The translations under genes and the position numbers were made by a program. The notes under the pieces were generated by a model, which had not been told where the DNA came from, searched no databases, and saw nothing but the letters and a program-made list of their open reading frames with translations. DNA of 64,000 nucleotides from a virus (lineage: Duplodnaviria; Heunggongvirae; Uroviricota; Caudoviricetes): positions 19,826 to 83,825 of IMG/VR virus record IMGVR_UViG_3300012346_000220; one strand, written 5' to 3'. Below, piece by piece: positions 10,294 through 52,432 of this stretch (its first letter is position 1; every line of letters starts with the position of its first letter).

Positions 10294-10740
10294 ATGTTGG
10301 TTGAGTTGGCGGCTTGCAACGCCGCATTTTCTGTAATCAAGCAGGCTCTGGCCAACGGCAAGGAGCTATCCGCGCTCGGCTCCAAGGTCTTCGATTACTT
10401 TGACAACAAGTCGAGAATCCAAGAGAAGGCCACCCAAAAAGGTGGCGGCTCAGACCTTGAAGAGTTCATGGCGCTGGAACAACTCCGGCAGCAAGAGGAG
10501 CACCTGCGCGAGTCCATGGTCTACGCGGGCCGCGCAGGCATGTGGGATGACTGGCAAAAGTTCCAAGCTGCCGCTGCGCGTAAGCGCAGAGAGGCCAAAG
10601 AAGCAGCCGCCCGCGCCATCATTAACCGCAAGAAAAGAGCCGAACAGCTTGTTGAGTATTTTGCTATCGGCCTCGCTGGGTTGATTTTGACCGCCCTGAT
10701 TATTTACGGCATCGTGCTGTACGTCAGGTATCTGCGATGA
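10294..10740 (+). CDS. Coiled-coil protein with C-terminal transmembrane helix (lysis-cassette associated)
   Basis: C-terminal hydrophobic helix IGLAGLILTALIIYGIVLYV. Lies upstream of the lysozyme. Confidence 0.35.
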   Translation: MLVELAACNAAFSVIKQALANGKELSALGSKVFDYFDNKSRIQEKATQKGGGSDLEEFMALEQLRQQEEHLRESMVYAGRAGMWDDWQKFQAAAARKRREAKEAAARAIINRKKRAEQLVEYFAIGLAGLILTALIIYGIVLYVRYLR

Positions 10741-18659: not shown

Positions 18660-20237
18660 ATGGCAATCGACCAACGCGACGTCAGCTCTACCCTGCGGTT
18701 CATGGATGACCGCGCATTGCAGCAGTACGCTGCAATGCACAAGAACGACCCCTACATCTTCCCACTGGCTTTCCAAGAAAGCCAGAACCGTCAGAAGCTG
18801 CGCATGCAACAACAAGCGCAAGCAGGTGCGCAGCCCCAGCCAAAAGTAGCCGACCAAGCGTTGGCCCAGATGGCTCCCCCACAGCCGCAACCAGTGCCAG
18901 AAGCACAAGGTATTGGCGCTTTGGCCGCTCCCAATATGCAGCAGATGGCTGATGGCGGTATTGCCGGGTATGACGACGATGCCAATTTTGCTGCACGCAG
19001 CGAGCCCGTTGTGATGATGGCTGACGGCGGTGTTGCCCGCTACAACGGAGCGCAGGGGTCTGCTGTTAACCCAGAACTGGCCAGTTTGATGGATGCCCGT
19101 CAACGCTACATTCTTGCAGGCTCAGACACGTCAGGCATCGACCAAGCAATCTCTACGTTGCAAGCACAGATGGCTGCGCCCCAGTCACAAGCCAGCTATT
19201 CCAACGAAGGCCGAAACGCTCCGACGCCTGCCCCGCAAGCCAGTTACTCTAATGAAGGCCGTCGCGTTGCCGCGCCTGCTGTATCAAGTGTAAAAACGGA
19301 CGGAGCCGCGCCCAGTGCCGATACTGGTCGCCGCCCTCCTACAGATGTGAGCGCTTCCGCAAAGCTACCAAGCATGTCGGACCTGACTGCACTGCGTCAG
19401 CAAATCTCGGACAAGCAAGACTACAAAGACCCCGCAGCTTCTGGCCTGTTGGAGCTGGAAGCACGCGAGCGTGCAAACGCTGCCGCTGAAAAACAAGCCA
19501 TCGTAAGCGATGCCGAGAAGTTCAAAGACGCCTACAAGGGGCGTGAAGGACGACTGGCCGAGCGTGAGGCAGACATCGGCAAACAGAAAGACCAGAACAC
19601 AGGGCTTGCTCTTCTCAACGCAGGTCTGGCCATCATGTCCACTCCGGGCGGTTTGGCTACGGCCATCGGTAAGGGTGCACAGGTAGGCACGGCGCAGTTT
19701 GCCGCTGGTCTGGACAAGATTCGTTCCGCTCAAGAGCGTTTGGGTGAAGCCCGCGATAAGCTGGACGACATGAAGCTCAACCGCGAAGAGAACACTGCCA
19801 AGGAAATCCGTGCAGCCGAGCGTAACTACCGCGACGTGGCGGTCAATGCGCAGAAGCGCACGATTGACGGCATCCGTATGGCGGCTGACGTCAACGAGAA
19901 ACGTGCTTCGGACATCTACAGCAAGACTGTGGACATGACCAAAACGATGTACGAGCAGGGCGAAGCAAACAAGCGTTCTGCGGCCGGAAACCGGAACAAC
20001 CAACTGGAAATGCTGCAAGCCTTGCAAGCGGACCCTAAGTTGATGGCAACCTACCGCACAATGCAGGGCAAGAACGAAGACGTGATGGGTCAGTACAACG
20101 ACTACTTGAAAGCCAACCCTGCGCTGGCCCTTGACCCCAAGCAAGCCTTCACGCAGTTCTTGATGACCAAGTCGGCATTCCAACAACTGGGCACCCCCAC
20201 GGTAACGGATACGCCGACAGGAAAAGTGCGTAACTAA
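18660..20237 (+). CDS. Hypothetical virion protein (Q/A/P-rich N-terminal half, repeated MADGG motif)
   Basis: 525 aa. Confidence 0.4.
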   Translation: MAIDQRDVSSTLRFMDDRALQQYAAMHKNDPYIFPLAFQESQNRQKLRMQQQAQAGAQPQPKVADQALAQMAPPQPQPVPEAQGIGALAAPNMQQMADGGIAGYDDDANFAARSEPVVMMADGGVARYNGAQGSAVNPELASLMDARQRYILAGSDTSGIDQAISTLQAQMAAPQSQASYSNEGRNAPTPAPQASYSNEGRRVAAPAVSSVKTDGAAPSADTGRRPPTDVSASAKLPSMSDLTALRQQISDKQDYKDPAASGLLELEARERANAAAEKQAIVSDAEKFKDAYKGREGRLAEREADIGKQKDQNTGLALLNAGLAIMSTPGGLATAIGKGAQVGTAQFAAGLDKIRSAQERLGEARDKLDDMKLNREENTAKEIRAAERNYRDVAVNAQKRTIDGIRMAADVNEKRASDIYSKTVDMTKTMYEQGEANKRSAAGNRNNQLEMLQALQADPKLMATYRTMQGKNEDVMGQYNDYLKANPALALDPKQAFTQFLMTKSAFQQLGTPTVTDTPTGKVRN

Positions 20238-33690: not shown

Positions 33691-35250
33691 TCAAGAATTT
33701 ATTTCGAGGGTGAACATCTCGGTCAGAAGTGAGCTATCGCTCACTTTCGCTGCGAGGGCCTTGAACATCTTGGCCTCCACGGGGGAGCTTTGGATGTGGA
33801 AGACTGTCACCTTGTCGGCGTTCTGGCCCTTGCGGTCGGCACGGGCAATACACTGGATGTACTGCTCAACGCTCATCAAGGGGCCGTAGAACACCACGGT
33901 GTCAGCGGCAGTCAACGTAATGCCGTGCGCTGTAGCAGCAGGCTGCATGACCAGCACCCTTGGGTCGGGGTCGGTCTGGAAGCGGTGGATGATGTCGCCT
34001 CGTTTGTTGGCTGATACACCGCCGTGGATGCACTCGTTGGTGATGCCCTTGGATGTCAGGTGGCGCTGGATGGTCTCGATGCTGGCGCGGAACAACGCGA
34101 AGACGATGACCTTGCGGTTTGTCTCCTCCAGAATCTCCTCCAACACGCCAAGCCTTGGGCCAGCGTCGAACTCCACCACCTCTTTGGTGTCGGTCAGCGC
34201 AGCACCCGCAGATACCTGAAGCAGCTTGCTCAGCATAGCAGCGGCATTGACCGCAGTGATGACCTCTCCAGCAGCTTGGACCAGCATCTGATCCTTGAGC
34301 ATGTTGTAGTACTTGGCCTGCTGCGGAGTCAGCGGAACCTCGCGGGTCAGCGTCATCACTGGCGGCAAGTCAAGGCACTGGTCTTTGGAGAACCGGATCG
34401 CTGGTTGCAGCGCATTGAACACACGGTCACGCGCATCGGGTTTGGGTGCCCACTTGTACAGCGTGATCTTGTTCATCACCGAGTCGCGCCATCCTGTGTA
34501 GAACAGCGGCACGTTGTCAGGGTTGACCAGCTTGGCCAGCCCGTACGCATCAGCAGGCGACTGCGATGCTGGTGTGCCCGTCATCATCCACAGGTGTGTC
34601 TTCGGTCCGATGATGGACTTGAGCGTCTTCCATCGCTTGGTGGTCACTGTCTTGTAGGCGTTGGCCTCGTCAACAATCACCAGATCAAAGCGCCCGTCAT
34701 TGACGATCTCCTCGGCAATCAGGTTCAGTCCATCGTAGTTGCAGATCACGAACTCGTAGTCCTGCTGAATCATCTCGATGCGGCGTGACGACTTGCTGTG
34801 ATGCGCCACGATGGCCGAGCGGTGGATGATGCTGTTGTTCAGATCACTGAGCCATGCTGAGTGCATGATCGACAGTGGGCACAGTATCAACACACGCCGC
34901 ACAAAGCCTAGCTTCATCAAGTAGTCAGCGGCCCATAGCGATGCAAGCGTCTTGCCTGTGCCGGGATCGTTGAAACAAAACGCCCGCTTGTGCATCGTGA
35001 GAAATGCCGCAGTGTCCACTTGGTGAGCCATCGGTTTGTAGCGCCCCGGCCAGTCATAGCGCCGTGTGATCGGTGACTGGATGTCCTTCACGCCGAGGTT
35101 CTTCAGAACACGCGCTTCGTCCAAGCCCCAGTACACCGCAACATCGAAGCCGCCATCATCACGCTCGATGACTTTGTGCTTGGGGATGATCTTGTACTTC
35201 TCTGGGTTGCGTGTTCTGAAGACGATGGCCTTGTCGTCAATGATGTCCAA
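33691..35250 (-). CDS. SNF2-family (DEAD/DEAH-box) helicase
   Basis: Motif I NDPGTGKT, motif II VIVDEANAYK, and a C-terminal helicase domain (ALFRASIETIQRHL...VLVMQPAATAHGITL). Confidence 0.75.
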   Translation of the reverse strand: MDIIDDKAIVFRTRNPEKYKIIPKHKVIERDDGGFDVAVYWGLDEARVLKNLGVKDIQSPITRRYDWPGRYKPMAHQVDTAAFLTMHKRAFCFNDPGTGKTLASLWAADYLMKLGFVRRVLILCPLSIMHSAWLSDLNNSIIHRSAIVAHHSKSSRRIEMIQQDYEFVICNYDGLNLIAEEIVNDGRFDLVIVDEANAYKTVTTKRWKTLKSIIGPKTHLWMMTGTPASQSPADAYGLAKLVNPDNVPLFYTGWRDSVMNKITLYKWAPKPDARDRVFNALQPAIRFSKDQCLDLPPVMTLTREVPLTPQQAKYYNMLKDQMLVQAAGEVITAVNAAAMLSKLLQVSAGAALTDTKEVVEFDAGPRLGVLEEILEETNRKVIVFALFRASIETIQRHLTSKGITNECIHGGVSANKRGDIIHRFQTDPDPRVLVMQPAATAHGITLTAADTVVFYGPLMSVEQYIQCIARADRKGQNADKVTVFHIQSSPVEAKMFKALAAKVSDSSLLTEMFTLEINS

Positions 35251-35704
35251 AATACACCTCCTTCGCCATTAGGTACACCAGATGCGCCTCTTCAGGGCTG
35301 TTGAATATTCCAAGGTGTTGCTTGGCTTTGTGGGGAGGTGCTATTTGCGCAACCCAGCGGCCGCCTCGAAAGCTGTGTACTCCGGCCCAACCGCTCTTGT
35401 TGTTTCGGTTTGCCCCCGCTCTGTTGTGGGCATTGATGCGGCGCGTTACAACCCGCAAGTTGATCCACCTGTTATCCGCACGGTTGCAGTTCATATGGTC
35501 AACGTCTCGCGTGGGCAGGCTACCGGTTACATACAGCATAGCCAGTCGGTGTGCTTGGTACTGTTTACCTTGCACGACTATTTTTATGTAGCCGGTACTT
35601 GACAGCGTACCCGCACGCCGGTGTTTGTGCGTGCCGGTATTCCAACGGAACTCCCCTGTCAGCGGGTCGTACCGCAGCAGCCGTTTTAGTGTTTGCTGGT
35701 CCAT
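35237..35704 (-). CDS. HNH homing endonuclease
   Basis: YDPLTGEFRW...AHRLA...VDHMNCNRADNRWINLRVVT, a classic HNH architecture. Confidence 0.7.
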   Translation of the reverse strand: MDQQTLKRLLRYDPLTGEFRWNTGTHKHRRAGTLSSTGYIKIVVQGKQYQAHRLAMLYVTGSLPTRDVDHMNCNRADNRWINLRVVTRRINAHNRAGANRNNKSGWAGVHSFRGGRWVAQIAPPHKAKQHLGIFNSPEEAHLVYLMAKEVYFGHH

Positions 35705-40441: not shown

Positions 40442-40692
40442 GATTTCCTCTTTCGTTTAGCGTCTGGTCTTGGGCAATTTGCTGGGGGTACAACCACGCA
40501 CCATACGGCGCTTGGCATTCCGGTTCCACCGTAGTGTGTCCACCTGTCGATGTATGCGTCAGGCATTGTGAGCAGTATCTTGCGGATGTTGTTTGGCTCT
40601 CGGTCTAAGGTGTTGGCAATCGTGCCGACATCCATCCCGTCAGGGTTGCCCCTGAGCAGTGTACGAACTGACTGCGTTGTAAAGGTTCTCAT
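40438..40692 (-). CDS. Small HTH DNA-binding protein (paralog A)
   Basis: 84 aa. Similar to 41458..41760 (PDxYVDRW, C-terminal CP.P.). Confidence 0.45.
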   Translation of the reverse strand: MRTFTTQSVRTLLRGNPDGMDVGTIANTLDREPNNIRKILLTMPDAYIDRWTHYGGTGMPSAVWCVVVPPANCPRPDAKRKRKS

Positions 40693-41168
40693 GGGGCTAC
40701 CCCCACAATCGCTCGGGCCTTGCGCAAGCGGATTTCTTCCTCAACGATAAACAAGGCTTTCTCCAGCTCTCCCACGGTGCAGGCATCCAGTTGCGTGTCG
40801 TGCAAGTCCATCACCAGTTTCACCGCGGACATCTCTGGCCCCGTGAACAGGAACGAACCCTTCTCAACACCGCGCCTACCCATTGTGTAGATAGCGTCCT
40901 GCGCAGCCCTGATCTCCTCGGCCCAATCCCGCCCAAGAGCATCACGCACGCGGATCAGTGCCTCACTCATGTTGACTGCTGAGATAAGCACATCCAGCTC
41001 GGCCTTGGTGCTTTGCCCCTTGAGTACTGCGTCGAGTGCCTCACGGTTCTTGAGCTTCAGCCCCACGCCCGCACCGGGCAGCGTGCCTACCTTCTTTATG
41101 GTTGACTGCACCCACGCCATGTTGTCAAGGCGTATGCCTTTTGGTTTGTAATTGCTTCGCTTTCTCAT
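40689..41168 (-). CDS. Hypothetical protein
   Basis: 159 aa. Basic N-terminus. Confidence 0.35.
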   Translation of the reverse strand: MRKRSNYKPKGIRLDNMAWVQSTIKKVGTLPGAGVGLKLKNREALDAVLKGQSTKAELDVLISAVNMSEALIRVRDALGRDWAEEIRAAQDAIYTMGRRGVEKGSFLFTGPEMSAVKLVMDLHDTQLDACTVGELEKALFIVEEEIRLRKARAIVGVAP

Positions 41169-41873: not shown

Positions 41874-42079
41874 GTGTCCTCCCACTTCTGCGTGATGCTG
41901 CACCAGTACACGCCCTTTGTCTCGGCAAGGACGTGGCCGCGAACAATGTCATCCACCTGTCCACCAAGGCGGTAGTAGCCGCTCTCTCGGACGTTGAACA
42001 GCGTCTCGCCCGGTGCAAGCTCGACAGTGATGCGCCGACCACGCTTCAGGGTCGCTATTTCGTCTTTGATGATTTTCAT
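41870..42079 (-). CDS. Hypothetical protein
   Basis: 69 aa. Confidence 0.35.
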   Translation of the reverse strand: MKIIKDEIATLKRGRRITVELAPGETLFNVRESGYYRLGGQVDDIVRGHVLAETKGVYWCSITQKWEDT

Positions 42080-42285
42080 GCTTGCTTCTCCTTTTGTTTG
42101 GCTTCGTATCTGTCGGCCCAGTCGTTTAACTCAGGTATCGTGTACCAAGCCCTCGGCTCTTGCATAATGTCTTGAACCCGCTGCTCGTAGGGCTTCGGTC
42201 CAGTCTCTATGCCACAGCGCGTGCACTTCAGTGCCCCCGTGCTGCCGTCGGTGAATTCCCATTTGTGTTTGCATTCAGTCGTCAT
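42076..42285 (-). CDS. Small zinc-ribbon protein
   Basis: CKHKW...CTRCG, a four-Cys ribbon. Confidence 0.4.
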   Translation of the reverse strand: MTTECKHKWEFTDGSTGALKCTRCGIETGPKPYEQRVQDIMQEPRAWYTIPELNDWADRYEAKQKEKQA

Positions 42286-42442
42286 CTTCAGCAGCCTCCA
42301 GCGATTCGTTAATCAGTTGTTGCTTTACAAGCTCCAGCACACCAACCACGGTTGACATATACAAGGCAGTGTCGTAGTGGTGGATGACCTCAAGCAGCTC
42401 GTCCACCAACCCTTGAGCCAGTGCTCCTTGGTTTAAGTTCAT
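42275..42442 (-). CDS. Small acidic helical protein (paralog of 39221..39382)
   Basis: Start at the internal ATG at 42442 with an AAGGAG SD. Shares LVDELLEV(I/V)H.YD and an acidic C-terminus with the other copy. Confidence 0.4.
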   Translation of the reverse strand: MNLNQGALAQGLVDELLEVIHHYDTALYMSTVVGVLELVKQQLINESLEAAEDDD

Positions 42443-42699
42443 CGTCCTCTCCTTGCAACCCATCCGGTAGGTTCATCGTCGCCGGTCTGAAGCTTGGCGT
42501 ACTCCTCCACAGCTCGGTCCTTGTCTTCAAAGCAGAAGCGCTTGCCCCAGCCATTCAGATCAAGGTCGATGTAGATGGCGCGTGTGAACATCAAGTCACC
42601 AATGCCGATGATGGTTCCGTCTCGCAGGTACGCCACAACTTGGTAGCTGCCTCCACCAAGCTCTTTGATGCGCCTGAGCAGCTCTTCGTCAAGCGCCAT
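42439..42699 (-). CDS. Hypothetical protein (86 aa)
   Basis: ATG 42699 to TGA 42439. ATGA overlap with the downstream gene. The ORF-track entry 42439..43221 is an over-extended version. Confidence 0.4.
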   Translation of the reverse strand: MALDEELLRRIKELGGGSYQVVAYLRDGTIIGIGDLMFTRAIYIDLDLNGWGKRFCFEDKDRAVEEYAKLQTGDDEPTGWVARRGR

Positions 42700-42713
42700 G
42701 TCATTCACACTTC

Positions 42714-42950
42714 TCATAGCCCCAGCCCCGTCAATGCTGCTTGCAGACCAGCCAGGCCGCCGACACGTTGGCCGTCGATGAATATCTGGGGCATCTGACG
42801 GGCTTCGGGGTGCATCTTCAGCATCAGGTTGAATTCGATGTCGTCGACTTCTTGATGGAGCTCGGAGTAGGCGAGGCGCTTGCTGGCCAGCAGGTTCTTG
42901 GCTGCCACGCAGTTGGGGCAGTTGGCCTTGGTGTAGATTGTGATATTCAT
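42714..42950 (-). CDS. Glutaredoxin-like (NrdH/Grx) protein
   Basis: Start ATG 42950 with an AAGGAG SD. CPNC active-site motif in MNITIYTKANCPNCVAAK. Confidence 0.7.
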   Translation of the reverse strand: MNITIYTKANCPNCVAAKNLLASKRLAYSELHQEVDDIEFNLMLKMHPEARQMPQIFIDGQRVGGLAGLQAALTGLGL

Positions 42951-43392
42951 GTGTTCTTCTCCTTCTGTGTGAACAAGTCGTTGGTTGTCCGGGCCATGTT
43001 CCATCCTGCCTTGAAGGCGTCATTGACTTCAAAGCCCACTTCTTTTTCGTAGTCGGCAACGGTGGGCCAAGCGTAGTCAATCCCCACCCATTGCCGCTGT
43101 GCTGCGGGTGGGGTGGTGTAGACAGGCACTGTGTGTTTTGCGGCGTACCCCTGCTCAAGCCGTGTTGGCCCGGCTTGCATCTTTCGCTTCCACGACTCGG
43201 TGATGACGTTGCAATAGTCATCTCCTTCTGGGTCTAGCCACGCCACAGGCTCCTGCACAGGTGCTGCAAGGGCTTTAAGTCCTGCCTCTACAAGTTCAGT
43301 GCGCTCGGCTTGCAGTGCTGGCGTGTGGAAAGTTGCCACAGCCAACAGCATCAACATGCGCTCCAACCTCTCGCGTTCAATTTCTATGCTCA
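42947..43392 (-). CDS. Hypothetical protein, paralog 1 (contains YTTPPAAQRQ encoded by the 31-bp repeat)
   Basis: Start ATG 43392 with an AAGGAG SD. High-GC copy. Confidence 0.45.
43091..43121. repeat. 31-bp exact direct repeat, copy 1 (TTGCCGCTGTGCTGCGGGTGGGGTGGTGTAG); copy 2 at 43739..43769
   Basis: Identical 31-mers read directly. They are embedded in otherwise diverged paralogous genes that flank the local GC drop. Confidence 0.9.
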
Positions 43393-43402
43393 TGGTGTTC
43401 TC

Positions 43403-43574
43403 CTTATTCATCATAAAGTGCAAAAACAACTCCGGAGGCCAAAAAGATACCCGAGAACGCAACAAACGCACGCCCAGCCACTCCCCATGTAGCCGTATTG
43501 AAATCAGCATTTACAAACGCACCTGCTAAATACATAAGCACAAGAGTGCCTAAAAATCCAATGATGCTTTTCAT
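43403..43574 (-). CDS. 56-aa two-TM membrane protein (not in ORF track)
   Basis: ATG 43574 with an AAGGAG SD. Reads MKSIIGFLGTLVLMYLAGAFVNADFNTATWGVAGRAFVAFSGIFLASGVVFALYDE. Confidence 0.35.
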
Positions 43575-43996
43575 GTGTTTTTCTCCTTGAGTTTGGCTTC
43601 GATGGCATAAGCAAACGCTTGCAGGTCTGCGTTTGTGATTTCGTGTTGAGGTAATCCGCTTGTTTCATCGCAAGCGTAAATTTCTTCGGTTGTCAGCCCA
43701 ACCCACGCACTCCTTCGATCCTTCGGATCTGGTGCTGCTTGCCGCTGTGCTGCGGGTGGGGTGGTGTAGTAAGCGGTTGGCAACTCGTTGTTGGGGCCTC
43801 CGGGTGCCCAAGGCGTGTAGCAAATGTTTACGCAACACTGTTCTTTATCCATGAAGCCGTGAAACGCTGGCTCCTGCATAGGTGCTGCAAGTGCTTGCTC
43901 CAGCTTGTCAATTGTGATCTGTTGCGCTCGTACAAGTGCAATTATTCGCTGAACTTCTGTTTTTAAGTATTCAGCTTCATTGGTGTGGATGTTCAT
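43571..43996 (-). CDS. Hypothetical protein, paralog 2 (contains YTTPPAAQRQ; low-GC copy)
   Basis: ATG 43996 with an AAGGAG SD. Shares the 31-bp identical core with 42947..43392. Confidence 0.45.
   Translation of the reverse strand: MNIHTNEAEYLKTEVQRIIALVRAQQITIDKLEQALAAPMQEPAFHGFMDKEQCCVNICYTPWAPGGPNNELPTAYYTTPPAAQRQAAPDPKDRRSAWVGLTTEEIYACDETSGLPQHEITNADLQAFAYAIEAKLKEKNT
43739..43769. repeat. 31-bp exact direct repeat, copy 2
   Basis: Same 31-mer as 43091..43121. Confidence 0.9.
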
Positions 43997-44043
43997 GTTT
44001 TCTCCTTAAAACTTTATTTTGCTTGCCTAACCTTACTTTTTGC

Positions 44044-44715
44044 TTACGCCTCTCGCTTTAATCGCCTTGTTTCTGCGTTGTAGTGCTTGGCAATTTCAAT
44101 CAAGCCTTCATGGGTGTACGGCACTTCGCCTTTGTGCGTTGTTTTTGGTGTCAAAAGTGCCTCCTCTACCGTCATTCCGCTTGCAATCCTACGAACAATT
44201 GTGGTGTTAGACAAATAGCCACCAGTCACGCGACTCCATTCGTTTGCAGTCAAAGTCAGGCCATCAAACTCAATTGCATAATTCCCCTTTATTGTGTGCA
44301 ATTCTGGGTAGTTCCTTCGTGTATTACACACTCGGCATAACGGGCGCAAATTGTCGGGGATGTTGTTTTGAGGGTTGTTGTCTTTGTGGTCAATGTGTAC
44401 CGTTTCCCATGTCTCTGGTTTTCCGCATAACTCGCACGAATGAAGCGAGTAGCCAATTCGGTCAAACACTACTTTGCGATGCTCTGAAACATACCCTTGT
44501 GTGTCAGCAAGTGGATGGCTTGGCAAATACAGGCGCTGATAACCACGCCCAGGCATGGTGACTCGTTCTTGTCTACTGTAACCAAGCTCCTGTTTTTTTA
44601 TGGTCAACTTTGTGTCAGTTGTACCGTTTCTCATAACCCTAAAATAGTGCTTTTGGCAAAGGCAAGCGGCTTTGTACCTTACCTGCCCATCACAGTTTTC
44701 AACTTTGCATTGCAT
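44044..44715 (-). CDS. HNH endonuclease with N-terminal Cys-rich region
   Basis: HIDHKDNNPQNNIPDNLRPLCRVCN HNH motif. Start taken at ATG 44715. Confidence 0.7.
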   Translation of the reverse strand: MQCKVENCDGQVRYKAACLCQKHYFRVMRNGTTDTKLTIKKQELGYSRQERVTMPGRGYQRLYLPSHPLADTQGYVSEHRKVVFDRIGYSLHSCELCGKPETWETVHIDHKDNNPQNNIPDNLRPLCRVCNTRRNYPELHTIKGNYAIEFDGLTLTANEWSRVTGGYLSNTTIVRRIASGMTVEEALLTPKTTHKGEVPYTHEGLIEIAKHYNAETRRLKREA

Positions 44716-44847
44716 TTCAATTCCCCAAAAGAAAACCCCCCGTGACACAGAGGATCAAGCTCCATGTGACAGGGGGTAGGCCGGGGAAGGCTTTTGTGTA
44801 TCTGCGCCTTGATCTCGCAACACAAAAACCCTCTTGCCGCAATTATA

Positions 44848-45405
44848 TCATTCTCTTGCTTTGTTTAAGCGTTTAGCTTCTGAGTTGTAATAACGTGCGA
44901 TTTCGACTAAGCCTTCTTTTGTGTATTTCCTTACCGTTTGGTCTGATTCAACGCGCTCTAATGCGTTTAGCCCTATACGCTCAATAAGTCCTTTACGGTA
45001 TTCAACGTGATTTCCAGCCAAAAATTGGTTGCAATGTTTACAACTTGCGTGACAATTTTCTTCAACAAACCTCATGTGAGGCGCACTTCCAACGCTTCGA
45101 TAATGTGACGCATCCGTCTGGTTTGACTCTGTGCTTGGTGGCTTTCCACAGCTTATGCAAGGCTTATCAGCATCCCTTGCCCTTACAAACGCATTAAACG
45201 CCGTTTGAGCGACTTTTACCAACTGAGGCTTAGTCCTCATGGCATCTAGCTTTTCTCGGGTCTTCTTGCGTTCTTCTTGGGCTTCCTTGGCTTTCTTTTT
45301 TTCTGTTGCTTGCCGTGATACTTCAAGGGCGCATAGGGGGGAGCAAACTTTCTGGAGTGGTCTGACAGGGGCGAACTCTGCCTTGCAAAATTTGCACTTT
45401 TTCAT
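44848..45405 (-). CDS. NinG/Rap-like recombination-associated protein (Cys-rich zinc-binding)
   Basis: CKFCKAEF...CSPLC and CISCG...CHASCKHCN clusters typical of the lambda NinG family. ATGA-coupled to the methyltransferase. Confidence 0.5.
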   Translation of the reverse strand: MKKCKFCKAEFAPVRPLQKVCSPLCALEVSRQATEKKKAKEAQEERKKTREKLDAMRTKPQLVKVAQTAFNAFVRARDADKPCISCGKPPSTESNQTDASHYRSVGSAPHMRFVEENCHASCKHCNQFLAGNHVEYRKGLIERIGLNALERVESDQTVRKYTKEGLVEIARYYNSEAKRLNKARE

Positions 45406-46151
45406 GCTGTCAACACTTTCCATGCTGTTGCTGCCACTGAAGGAATTTGTCCATTTCCAATGGCTCCAAGCGCGTCCATCCTCTGGGCCATATCATCAAT
45501 TCCTCTGAAAGTTCTGGAAAGTACTTCATCGGAATATCGCTCTCGAAATAGACGTAAGTTATCTTCTCGGTTGGCGCTGACTTTCCAAGGGAAATTCGTT
45601 TTAACCTTGAATTCTTGATCCACTTTTCTTTTCCGTGTTGCACTCCGTCCGATTTTGTTGGAGTCGGCCAGAATCCATACTCTGTCGCGTTTCGTGTTAA
45701 TTCCAATGGAGTCACCTCCCAACACTCCCCATCGCGCATCAAACCCCATTTCGGCCAGGTCTCCAAGCACTCGTCCAAGTCCTCTAGAAATGAGCATTGG
45801 TGAGTTTTCCACAAGGACGTGTTTGGGTTGTACTTCACGAATGATCCTTGCCATGTGGCCCCACATTCCTGATCGTTCCCCGTCAATTCCGGCTCCTTTT
45901 CCGGCAACTGAGATGTCCTGGCATGGAAACCCGCCCGAAACAACGTCAACAATTCCTCTCCACGGTCTTCCGTCAAAGGTTTGAACGTCATCCCAAATCG
46001 GGAAAGGCGGGAGAAGTCCGTCATTTTGTCGGGCGCACAATACGCTTGCTGGATAGGGTTCCCATTCAACGGCGCAGACTGTTCGCCATCCGAGAAGTTT
46101 TCCCCCAAGTATTCCTCCACCAGCGCCTGCGAATAAAGCCAACTCATTCAT
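45402..46151 (-). CDS. Compact DNA cytosine-5 methyltransferase
   Basis: Motif I LFAGAGGG, motif IV GGFPCQDIS, motif VI ENSP, motif VIII TKRDRVWILA, motif X-like GNGQIP. Strong SD. Confidence 0.8.
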   Translation of the reverse strand: MNELALFAGAGGGILGGKLLGWRTVCAVEWEPYPASVLCARQNDGLLPPFPIWDDVQTFDGRPWRGIVDVVSGGFPCQDISVAGKGAGIDGERSGMWGHMARIIREVQPKHVLVENSPMLISRGLGRVLGDLAEMGFDARWGVLGGDSIGINTKRDRVWILADSNKIGRSATRKRKVDQEFKVKTNFPWKVSANREDNLRLFRERYSDEVLSRTFRGIDDMAQRMDALGAIGNGQIPSVAATAWKVLTA

Positions 46152-51225: not shown

Positions 51226-51801
51226 ATGCAAGTTTACAAAGCAATCAACGCTGTCCAGGCTGAGTTATCAGTCCAAGGCATTGCCAAAAATCAACGTAAC
51301 GGCCAAGGCGCTGGCTACAACTTTCGAGGAATTGATGACGTTTTGAACGCTCTTTCTCCTTTGCTGTCTAAGCACGGTCTTTGCATTTTGCCCCGTGTCT
51401 TGGCCCGTGAGTGCGTTGAGCGTCAATCTAAGAACGGTGGTGCATTGTTCTACATCACAGTAGAAGTCGAGTTTGATTTTGTATCGTCCGAGGATGGCAC
51501 AAAACACACCGTCAAGACGTTTGGCGAGGCAATGGATAGCGGCGATAAGGCAACCAACAAAGCCATGTCAGCGGCTTATAAATATGCTTGCTTTCAGGCG
51601 TTCAGCATTCCAACCGAAGCCAAAGAAGACGCTGATTATCAGACACACGAAGTCAAGCCAACACTGACAAACGCCCGTTTTGCCCAAGCTGTCGAACGTA
51701 TCAAAGAGGGAAAGTACACCACGGACAAGCTGCGCGAAACTTTCTCTTTGACTCAAGAACAAGAAGACGCATTGGTTGGAGCAATTGCAAATGCTGAATA
51801 A
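51226..51801 (+). CDS. ERF-family single-strand annealing protein
   Basis: AKNQRNGQGAGYNFRGIDDVLNALSPLLSKHGL and KAMSAAYKYACFQAFSIP resemble the ERF superfamily core. Confidence 0.55.
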   Translation: MQVYKAINAVQAELSVQGIAKNQRNGQGAGYNFRGIDDVLNALSPLLSKHGLCILPRVLARECVERQSKNGGALFYITVEVEFDFVSSEDGTKHTVKTFGEAMDSGDKATNKAMSAAYKYACFQAFSIPTEAKEDADYQTHEVKPTLTNARFAQAVERIKEGKYTTDKLRETFSLTQEQEDALVGAIANAE

Positions 51802-52432
51802 ACCACTGCTTTTCCGTGCGTCCAGCTTGGGCGACATCATGACCGACCCAAAAGGCAAAGACGAGGTTTTGTCTGTCGGTGCTAAGACCGCCATTACAAA
51901 GATGGCTAAAGAGGCTGTTTACGGCTTTGACGAGCGCGTTTCATCCAAGTACATGACCAAAGGCATTGAGGTTGAAGATCAGTCAATTTCCTTGCTCAAC
52001 TCTGTTTTGTTCACCGACTATTCCAAAAACACAGAGCGCAAAACAAATGATTGGGTAACAGGCGAGTGCGACATTTTTACAGGGTCAAAGATCATCGACA
52101 TTAAATCGTCTTGGTCGTTGTCCACGTTTCCCGTGTTGTCAGAACAGGGCGAGGATAAGGGCTATATGTGGCAACTCGCCGCCTATATGATGCTTTGGGA
52201 TGTTGACCATTCCCAGATCGCTTATTGCCTTGTTTCCACGCCTGAAAATCTGATTGGCTATGAAGATCCACAGCTTCATAATGTTGACCACATTAACCCA
52301 GAATTACGGGTTACGCTGGTGAGTTACGAACGCGACAAGGCCAAAGAATCCAAGATCAAAGAAAAGACTGAAGCCGCTCGTGACTACTACAAACAAGTAA
52401 TTGAACGAATTGCAAACGAACACACTTTCTAG
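51791..52432 (+). CDS. PD-(D/E)XK recombination exonuclease
   Basis: GECDIF...IIDIKSS...YMWQLAAYM has a D...(D/E)xK arrangement. Overlaps the end of the ERF gene. Confidence 0.5.
   Translation: MLNKPLLFRASSLGDIMTDPKGKDEVLSVGAKTAITKMAKEAVYGFDERVSSKYMTKGIEVEDQSISLLNSVLFTDYSKNTERKTNDWVTGECDIFTGSKIIDIKSSWSLSTFPVLSEQGEDKGYMWQLAAYMMLWDVDHSQIAYCLVSTPENLIGYEDPQLHNVDHINPELRVTLVSYERDKAKESKIKEKTEAARDYYKQVIERIANEHTF

Follow-up and report, generated by a model that had tools for sequence, protein, structure and literature searches.

The DNA analyzed here is a stretch of 64,000 nucleotides (the window), positions 19,826 to 83,825 of the IMG/VR virus record IMGVR_UViG_3300012346_000220 (Caudoviricetes), and the element in question is a 31-bp sequence, TTGCCGCTGTGCTGCGGGTGGGGTGGTGTAG, that lies within two small minus-strand genes, referred to here as gene A and gene B (for coordinates of all features, see Table 1). 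The window contains exactly two exact copies of this 31-mer and no additional copies even when up to 3 mismatches are allowed, and 100 shuffles of the window gave 0 occurrences. Both copies are in the same frame and both encode YTTPPAAQRQ, as a first-pass annotation of this DNA had reported. In the gene sense the 31-mer reads C-TAC-ACC-ACC-CCA-CCC-GCA-GCA-CAG-CGG-CAA, and its plus strand is G-rich (GGGTGGGGTGGTG). The abrupt drop in guanine-plus-cytosine (GC) content that the annotation had described is also borne out by a computed profile, in which GC is ~0.55 to 0.60 over 1 to 43.3 kb and ~0.42 to 0.50 over 43.4 to 64 kb, a sustained change from ~0.57 to 0.46 near 43.4 kb. The step adjoins the edge of a 56-amino-acid (aa) predicted membrane open reading frame (ORF) that lies between the two genes, as had been stated, but it coincides with neither copy of the 31-mer.

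The two genes are not the diverged paralogs that they were originally taken to be. The gene A and gene B proteins have 35% identity, which is confined to 79 aa, and the DNA alignment contains three near-identical patches, which are the sequence encoding ALAAPxQEP, the 31-mer, and the last 18 nucleotides (nt), AAGGAGAAnAACACATGA; the remainder is unalignable. These patches lie in three short seams, which we term S0, S1, and S2, and the stretches that they delimit are modules M1, M2, and M3. The modules of gene A (M1, MSIEIERERLERMLMLLAVATFHTPALQAERTELVEAGLK; M2, LDPEGDDYCNVITESWKRKMQAGPTRLE..KHTVPV; M3, DYAWPTVADYEKEVGFEVNDAFKAGWNMARTTNDLFTQKEKNT) are each found elsewhere with other partners, M1 in P0122, P0136, P0138, and P0201, M2 in P0123, P0126, and P0127, and M3 in P0125, P0128, P0131, and P0139. 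In an alignment, the modules of gene B are each common to a different set of proteins. These comparisons show that genes A and B are each three-module mosaics, different assortments of unrelated modules with three short seams in common. Both genes have all three of the family features tested (S1 in frame with consensus codons, S0 upstream, and the S2 3' block). S1 of gene A continues as WVGI and its S2 is reduced to the tail AAGGAGAAGAACACATGA; S2 of gene B has 1 mismatch in 24 nt, and the insertion variant of S1 found in gene B is also present in locus L024.

All 92 occurrences of S1 are in frame within ORFs. The family has the layout of a variable N-terminal part of 16 to 290 aa, S1, a variable stretch of 25 to 35 aa, and the usual end ...ARAIEAKLKEKNT*, and in the 15 to 35 residues that separate S1 from S2 change has reached saturation or the stretch has been replaced, while the codons of S1 and S2 are kept. 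An AlphaFold2 model of the gene B protein has a helix at residues 3 to 36, a small β unit at 45 to 76, and helices at 103 to 113 and 122 to 139. In this model the predicted local distance difference test score is <50 solely at residues 82 to 89, the S1 peptide, which lies between the folded modules, and the low predicted template modeling score of 0.37 is as would be expected for modules on flexible tethers. Pfam and PHROGs have no family for genes A and B or for the membrane ORF, the named database relatives of genes A and B are all "hypothetical," and fold searches against BFVD and PDB gave matches solely to uncharacterized proteins of uncultured phages, and no function. As for the Ead/Ea22-like proteins, there is no Pfam or PHROG match, and the sole fold match, to an Erwinia phage Ead/Ea22-like protein, is not significant (E = 1.3). 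A literature search on the seam peptide motifs returned nothing relevant. We conclude that the seam-bearing proteins, which are small, modular, and encoded in the early regions of uncultured freshwater phages, make up a new, large family that has not been annotated before.

Conservation of the seams as DNA

S1 is a seam of ~60 nt encoding (P)L-YTTPPAAQRQ-WVGLTDEE, with the 31-mer as its core, and it is present in at least 90 viral contigs and 45 metagenome contigs. Exact matches to the 31-mer are found in 35 IMG/VR viral contigs, 1 Rhodoferax metagenome-assembled genome contig, and 45 metagenome contigs, some of which duplicate IMG/VR contigs. The occurrence of the 31-mer or its seam in well over 100 contigs from many samples does not support the earlier proposal of recent gene conversion between the two copies in the window. 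In the gene sense, the left flanks of the 31-mer matches diverge from the first upstream base. To the right, ~24 nt outside the query, TGGGTTGGGCTGACGGATGAGGAG (WVGLTDEE), are mostly identical among the matches, with divergence afterwards. A codon-degenerate scan with the peptide TTPPAAQRQWVG, in which every third codon position was left free and the bias of an exact-string search is thereby removed, detected 78 IMG/VR loci, nearly all with identical codons. Across 83 dereplicated loci, the major-allele frequency is 0.8 to 1.0 from approximately −5 to +57 relative to the 31-mer start and ~0.36 in both flanks. S1 is unchanged across loci of 0.40 to 0.64 GC, and it is found beside marker genes of both phage types that are represented in the window, PolA-type and lambdoid-type.

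We compared the share of each core codon with how often it is used in the variable regions of the ORFs that contain the seam. The seam codons are fixed at 81 to 100%, versus 13 to 56% use of those codons in the flanks (ACC, 96 to 97% in the core and 35% in the flanks; CCA, 97% and 29%; CCC, 96% and 13%; GCA, 99 to 100% and 40%; CGG, 81% and 13%; GTT, 88% and 29%; GGG, 89% and 19%; CTG, 92% and 28%; ACG, 86% and 17%). At codons +17 and +18 the share is back to background (0.63 versus 0.56 and 0.41 versus 0.44, respectively). The flank usage rules out codon bias as the cause of S1 identity, and the conservation of S1 is at the level of DNA, due neither to codon bias nor to selection on the peptide alone. 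The first-pass annotation was therefore right that identity at synonymous positions is a DNA-level phenomenon, but the RNA constraint that it offered as one explanation is not supported. Rfam 15 covariance models give no match at E up to 1 within 42000 to 45000 on either strand, and the predicted folding of the seam, on either strand, is no better than that of shuffles (z of −0.2 to −1.25), and structured RNA was therefore rejected as the main explanation. S1 also has a second haplotype, with three linked synonymous differences (CGG CAA TGG GTT to CGC CAG TGG GTC, positions +27, +30, and +36), in ~13 of 73 loci (e.g., L044, L045, and L066), so that it exists as two discrete alleles rather than as scattered variation.

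The other two seams are conserved in the same manner. S0, upstream of S1, is GCA CCT GTG CAG GAG CCT GTG GCG (TGG), encoding APVQEPVA(W), and its codon shares are 0.86 to 1.00 in 68 unique contexts from loci that were not selected on S0. S2 is a 3' block, GCCATCGAAGCCAAACTCAAGGAGAAGAACACATGA, that encodes AIEAKLKEKNT* and is conserved as DNA; it contains the ribosome-binding site (RBS) and the ATG of the next gene, and this ATG overlaps the stop codon as ATGA. Conservation holds up to the ATGA, and the sequence past it is unrelated between loci. The closest PolA-type relative of the window, L136:1-10000 (IMGVR_UViG_3300036944_000366), carries 5 S0, 2 S1, and 3 S2 copies in ~3 kb of its early region, where seam-bearing genes are thus densely clustered.

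In order to compare what lies between the seams, three segments of each locus were compared pairwise, namely, the 200 nt to the left of S1, the stretch bounded by the two seams S1 and S2, and the first 200 nt past the stop codon. Twelve pairs of loci are related in the left segment only, 10 in the middle only, 10 in the downstream segment only, 8 in all three, and 3 in two of the three. Relatedness confined to one segment is thus much commoner than relatedness in two, and the segments between seams assort independently. In ungapped display, identity between L044 and L045 begins at the first base of S1 and stops at the ATGA of S2, with unrelated sequence on both sides. L003 and L005 have the same on/off pattern, and L028 and L029 match completely from S0 through the last base of S1 but have unrelated flanks. 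Identical three-segment combinations are found in different samples (L044/L066, L061/L070, L016/L030, L059/L076, L071/L073, L050/L080, L085/L090, and L013/L034), and the P0131 and P0123 genes recur in contigs from different assemblers, which indicates that at least part of the shuffling is real.

Probable recombination at the seams and the joint in the window

Based on these patterns, we think it probable that the seams are linker-coding stretches of short homology for phage recombinases, which would yield in-frame shuffling of modules. The proteins would be strings of small, independently folding modules, in which S0 and S1 encode Pro/Ala-rich flexible linkers together with the first residues of the next module, and S2 encodes a putative C-terminal helix as well as the RBS and start codon of the following gene. 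Since S0 and S1 encode linkers and S2 carries the translation signals of the next gene, each exchange would be in frame and expressible. A crossover at a seam would fall between folding units, and modules and downstream genes could be swapped as cassettes within and between phage lineages. Published minimal pairing segments are 23 to 27 bp for Redbeta and 31 to 34 bp for RecA (De Paepe et al. 2014, PMC3945230). Seam identity over ~24 to 60 nt among unrelated genes and genomes reaches these lengths and would therefore be homology enough for phage-encoded annealing recombinases and for RecA. The Erf protein encoded in the window is a candidate enzyme, as is RecA. The comparisons show directly that the seams are conserved as DNA and sharply bounded, that the modules assort independently, and where the joint lies, whereas we infer which recombinase takes part and why the seams stay identical. 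That identity is likely kept either by repeated copying and homogenization through recombination or by selection for staying exchangeable. In the window itself, the S1 copies form a direct repeat whose members share one reading frame. A crossover from one to the other is predicted to remove 648 bp and to produce an intact chimeric ORF in which M1 and M2 of gene B are joined to M3 of gene A.

The window evidently consists of parts of two different phages. The PolA-type arm, from 1 to ~43.08 kb, has a GC content of 0.57 and carries structural genes on the plus strand, including one for a 2217-aa protein, and genes for a primase-helicase, a helicase, a PD-(D/E)XK nuclease, PolA, and an Hjc-like nuclease on the minus strand. 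Its relatives are IMG/VR contigs of ~61 to 63 kb, the closest of which, L136, is ~91 to 92% identical over 27 to 40 kb. In these relatives the early operon stays at 0.51 to 0.59 GC through the full 10 kb retrieved upstream of PolA, with no step. The lambdoid arm, from 43.09 to 64 kb, has a GC content of 0.46 and relatives that run 31 to 40 kb, including L224, L222, and L216. On the minus strand it encodes a replication initiator, a DnaB-type helicase, a C5-methyltransferase, NinG, and an HNH protein and, further on, a tape measure protein, a distal tail protein, a J-like fiber, and a tail spike; the Erf and exonuclease genes are on the plus strand.

Comparison of gene A with loci of each type locates the joint. 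In the lambdoid-type relative L224, NinG is directly followed by a gene whose N terminus is homologous to M1 of gene A (window 43406 to 43239, 81% identity), and this homology ends in S0. In the lambdoid nin region of L246 and L247 (methylase, RusA, and NinB), where the methylase is 88% identical to that of the window, the next gene matches window 43256 to 43086 at 89.5%, that is, S0, M2, and S1 to its end. On the other side, the PolA-type early region of L243 and L244 (glutaredoxin, DUF3310, and Hjc-like) includes, upstream of a glutaredoxin gene, a gene with 100% identity to window positions 43078 to 42946 (M3 and S2), and L245 likewise ties M3 to genes of the PolA arm. Lambdoid homology to 43086 and PolA-type identity from 43078 place the switch at 43086 to 43078, the downstream edge of the 31-mer in gene A. 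The mosaic joint proposed in the first-pass annotation thus stands, although it is ~300 bp from the GC step with which it had been equated; the step lies upstream of the joint because M1 and M2 are relatively GC-rich (0.55 to 0.56) despite being lambdoid-type. The gene B copy, 648 bp upstream of the gene A copy, is an unexceptional S1 in a gene of the lambdoid arm. Of the refuting condition set in the annotation, a widespread motif with no relation to this junction, only the first half holds: the motif is indeed widespread, yet its association is with junctions as a class, and this strengthens the reading as a joint.

Several points weigh against recombination at the seams as we have described it. 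The crossovers are deduced from comparative patterns, and all of the sequences are metagenome assemblies, in which shared repeats can make chimeric contigs. Several contigs stop exactly at S1 (L099, 3594 to 3624 of 3624; L121, 5120 to 5150; L010, 8122 to 8152 of 8155; L092, 10 to 40; and L133, 1209 to 1239 of 1241), which means that assembly graphs branch there. Two S1 copies per locus are uncommon (2 of 119 long loci). The M2-S1-M3 combination of gene A, including its S1-to-M3 junction, and the junction between the membrane ORF and gene A are absent from all other viral and metagenome contigs covered by exact and codon-degenerate scans. Finally, homologous recombination alone does not account for the resistance of the seams to synonymous drift, for which one candidate is some role of the DNA itself, for instance, as a site that a protein binds or cleaves. 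For the window, the alternative is that its joint is an assembly artifact or a replicative cointegrate, in which a PolA-type phage of ~62 kb and a lambdoid phage of ~37 kb were threaded through a shared seam; the seam family would still be real, but the mosaic operon would not belong to a viable phage. The source contig is 99,355 bp, which is ~62.5 kb plus ~37 kb, and this sum, together with the two-phage content, points to a cointegrate or to an assembly graph that was traversed as a figure eight by way of the seam. The window has two replication modules and two sets of tail genes of different types, its PolA-type operon is shorter than in all of the relatives, and the joint, with its junction sequences unique to the source contig, is inside a 31- to 36-nt stretch that is identical in many co-occurring phages. 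However, the final k-mers of the usual metagenome assemblers exceed the ~36 nt of the shared exact stretch, which is also far shorter than a read, so reads should resolve such a repeat. Other seam recombinants are reproduced across samples, and both genes that flank the joint have undisrupted reading frames, as would also be the case in a chimera that arose via a shared in-frame k-mer. We therefore regard an artifact or cointegrate as quite possible, if short of probable, and at the joint a natural recombinant and a mis-assembly are about equally likely. In either case, the 31-mer is the point of exchange.

Other explanations concern the seam itself. If it were a functional nucleic acid element (a structured RNA, the target of a small RNA, a Chi-like signal, or a site bound or cut by a phage protein such as the HNH endonuclease next to it), with recombination as a side effect, then synonymous-site fixation far above codon bias, the G-rich plus strand, the HNH endonuclease gene inserted beside gene B, and the linked changes of the second haplotype would all be understandable. 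The Rfam and folding results given above do not favor such an element, the three changes of the second haplotype are off the paired positions of the predicted fold, and the HNH gene is not consistently adjacent, since L224, L216, L221, and L222 lack it. Moreover, three unrelated seams behave alike, as would be expected of stretches that serve as general homology more than of a single specific site, and we consider this explanation unlikely. Purifying selection on the peptide combined with recent ancestry, in which a young C-terminal domain has spread with too little time for synonymous change, is consistent with the high conservation of the peptide YTTPPAAQRQWVGLTDEE and with the fact that all copies are in frame in intact ORFs. 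It is very improbable, though, given that residues between S1 and S2 in the same small domain are saturated or replaced, that conservation ends within one or two codons, and that the seam is constant across genomes of 0.40 to 0.64 GC and at least two unrelated phage types; strong constraint on the peptide is also unexpected in a Pro/Ala-rich disordered linker. A more far-reaching version of our own proposal, in which the seams are an evolved and actively maintained recombination code, comparable to splice sites, for exon-style shuffling of modules, possibly with a dedicated phage factor that recognizes or nicks them, seems doubtful to us. If it were true, the seams would stay identical among unrelated phage lineages because they enable phages to reassort rapidly a common pool of small early-protein modules, possibly effectors of counter-defense or host takeover.

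Comparison with known systems

The seam system resembles gp38 adhesins, promoter-early stem-loop (PeSL) cassettes, and relaxed recombination in its working, yet it is a member of none of these. In the gp38 adhesins of T4-type phages, glycine-rich motifs (GRMs) alternate with hypervariable segments that are swapped by crossovers in the motifs (Tetart et al. 1998, as cited in Trojet et al. 2011, PMC3157838), and the GRMs are regarded as the structural core of one domain in a host-range virion protein. GRMs are, like seams, short conserved intragenic motifs between variable segments. They differ in that GRMs are a single-domain core and Gly-rich, whereas the seams are flexible linkers with module edges and are Pro/Ala/Gln-rich. 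By comparison with gp38, the seam modules are unrelated folds in small early proteins, the seams cross unrelated lineages and GC contents, and synonymous fixation has been measured. Genes A and B show neither homology to gp38 nor GRMs nor a tail-fiber neighbor; they have no Pfam or PHROG match and are in early or nin regions, so that the likeness is one of mechanism only.

In the hyperplastic regions of T4-type phages, conserved PeSL sequences of ~100 bp flank small nonessential early genes (Arbiol et al. 2010, PMC2839356); they are preferred recombination sites that shuffle early genes with their expression signals, and direct repeats of them can excise mini-circles (PMC2839356). The likeness is that S2 brings with it the RBS and start codon of the gene that follows and that the S1 pair could excise a 648-bp circle, leaving an in-frame chimera. 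However, PeSLs are intergenic promoter-terminator units (a sigma-70-type early promoter and then a terminator stem-loop) that move whole genes, while S0 and S1 are coding sequences inside ORFs, would swap protein modules, and have no notable stem-loop by the folding scores above (no dedicated promoter scan was run); neither a promoter nor a terminator role is implied for them. The Rad52-like phage recombinases (Redbeta, Erf, Sak, and RecT) carry out relaxed homologous recombination, which is a source of mosaicism and often exchanges intragenic sequences of ~100 bp (PMC3945230). Exchange at short identity and an Erf-family gene in the window are common to both cases, but relaxed recombination uses opportunistic homology, whereas the seams are three recurring, dedicated joints, present in >100 contigs and identical at synonymous sites.

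Also related is the Botstein-type idea of conserved boundary sequences between modules. In polymorphic toxin systems, demarcation motifs (VENN in CdiA and PxxxxDPxGL in Rhs) bound exchanged variable protein ends. These likewise place a short motif at the boundary of exchange, but they have a long conserved N-terminal body, one variable toxin tip, and an immunity gene, while both sides of a seam vary and no toxin/immunity pair is evident. The pattern is also not that of a diversity-generating retroelement, since identity is limited to 31 nt, the flanks are unrelated, and there is no adenine-specific pattern; no reverse transcriptase was found among the window proteins scanned, a subset of the ORFs.

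It is a matter of debate what share of the joints in mosaic phage genomes comes from homologous exchange over short conserved stretches and what share from illegitimate joining at random with subsequent selection. The seams are an unusually clean natural case, with three coding sequences, synonymous identity, >100 contigs, a GC range of 0.40 to 0.64, edge-sharp switches, and independent assortment. Linker-coding seams would give in-frame, foldable products, that is, domain shuffling without introns. They also provide a testable system for how much identity phage recombinases need in nature and for why seams resist drift. There is in addition a practical warning for binning and chimera detection in freshwater viromes, because assemblies break, and may mis-join, at seams, which the two-phage contig studied here may illustrate.

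Neighboring genes

The remaining features of the window are listed with genes A and B in Table 1.

Table 1. Positions of the seam-bearing genes and other features in the window (plus-strand coordinates)
Feature	Position	Strand	Description
Gene A, 148 aa	42947..43393	−	M1, 43268-43393; S0, 43238-43267; M2, 43122-43237; S1, 43091-43121; WVGI, 43079-43090; M3, 42950-43078; S2-like tail with RBS and ATGA, 42947-42964
S1 core in gene A	43091..43121	−	Last base of V91, then Y92-Q101; copy at the lambdoid/PolA-type joint
S0 core in gene A	43241..43264	−	GCACCTGTGCAGGAGCCTGTGGCG (APVQEPVA); zero mismatches to consensus
Gene B, 141 aa	43571..43996	−	Predicted coiled-coil M1; S0 variant AAPMQEP, 43868-43888; Cys-containing M2; S1; insertion; predicted two-helix M3; S2, 43571-43606, GCCATCGAAGCCAAACTCAAGGAGAAAAACACATGA
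S1 core in gene B	43739..43769	−	Y77-Q86; then 33-nt insertion, 43706-43738 (AAPDPKDRRSA), then WVGLTTEE, 43682-43705
GC step	43394-43403		0.43 (membrane ORF) to 0.55 (gene A start); differs from the phylogenetic joint
Predicted membrane ORF, 56 aa	43404..43574	−	Between genes B and A; GC of 0.43, the composition of the lambdoid arm; start overlaps gene B stop (ATGA)
Glutaredoxin gene	42714..42950	−	PF00462, E = 6.9e-11; first PolA-type-arm gene after gene A; ATG inside the S2-like tail of gene A
HNH endonuclease gene	44044..44748	−	PF01844; just upstream of gene B; insertion relative to lambdoid relatives
Erf-family single-strand-annealing recombinase gene	51226..51801	+	PF04404, E = 1.5e-24; phrog_155 and phrog_5715 (Erf/exonuclease region); lambdoid arm
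Exonuclease gene	51776-52432	+	After the Erf gene; lambdoid arm

Homologs of the glutaredoxin gene are present in the PolA-type relatives L142, L153, L180, and L243. In L224, L216, L221, and L222, NinG is directly followed by sequence matching window 44119 to 43993 (L224 was compared at 10470-10610). The C terminus of the HNH protein, THEGLIEIAKHYNAETRRLKREA, nearly duplicates that of NinG (window, EGLVEIARYYNSEAKRLNKARE; L224, EGLQEIAKHYNAETRRLKREM), and the HNH gene looks like a free-standing homing endonuclease gene that, on inserting, reconstituted the end of the gene it targeted. This HNH protein was considered as a seam-cutting agent and set aside, as these four relatives are without the gene. 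Another HNH-family gene (PF13392, HNH_3) is at 35237 to 35704 on the minus strand of the PolA-type arm, between the PD-(D/E)XK nuclease and helicase genes, and in the relative L245, too, an HNH_3 gene adjoins the helicase gene. The recombination-type enzymes of the PolA-type arm are the PD-(D/E)XK nuclease and the Hjc-like resolvase, and ERF is found in L245 as well.

In searches of collections of cultured phages and of the plasmid type, the region has no close relative; the C5-methyltransferase alone matches, and the seam hits one metagenome-assembled record. This methyltransferase (FAGxGG, PCQ, and ENV motifs) is 85 to 90% identical to genes of other freshwater phages, and it is encoded by one of two ORFs of ~245 to 249 aa, 45402 to 46151 and 45410 to 46147 on the minus strand, that overlap almost completely in different frames and are both open throughout. 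Lastly, an early gene for a 159-aa protein in the PolA-type arm (40689 to 41168, minus strand) has homologs in loci L029, L071, L073, and L086, which carry lambdoid-type DnaB-like/O-like genes, indicating that the two phage types share a pool of early genes beyond the seam family.

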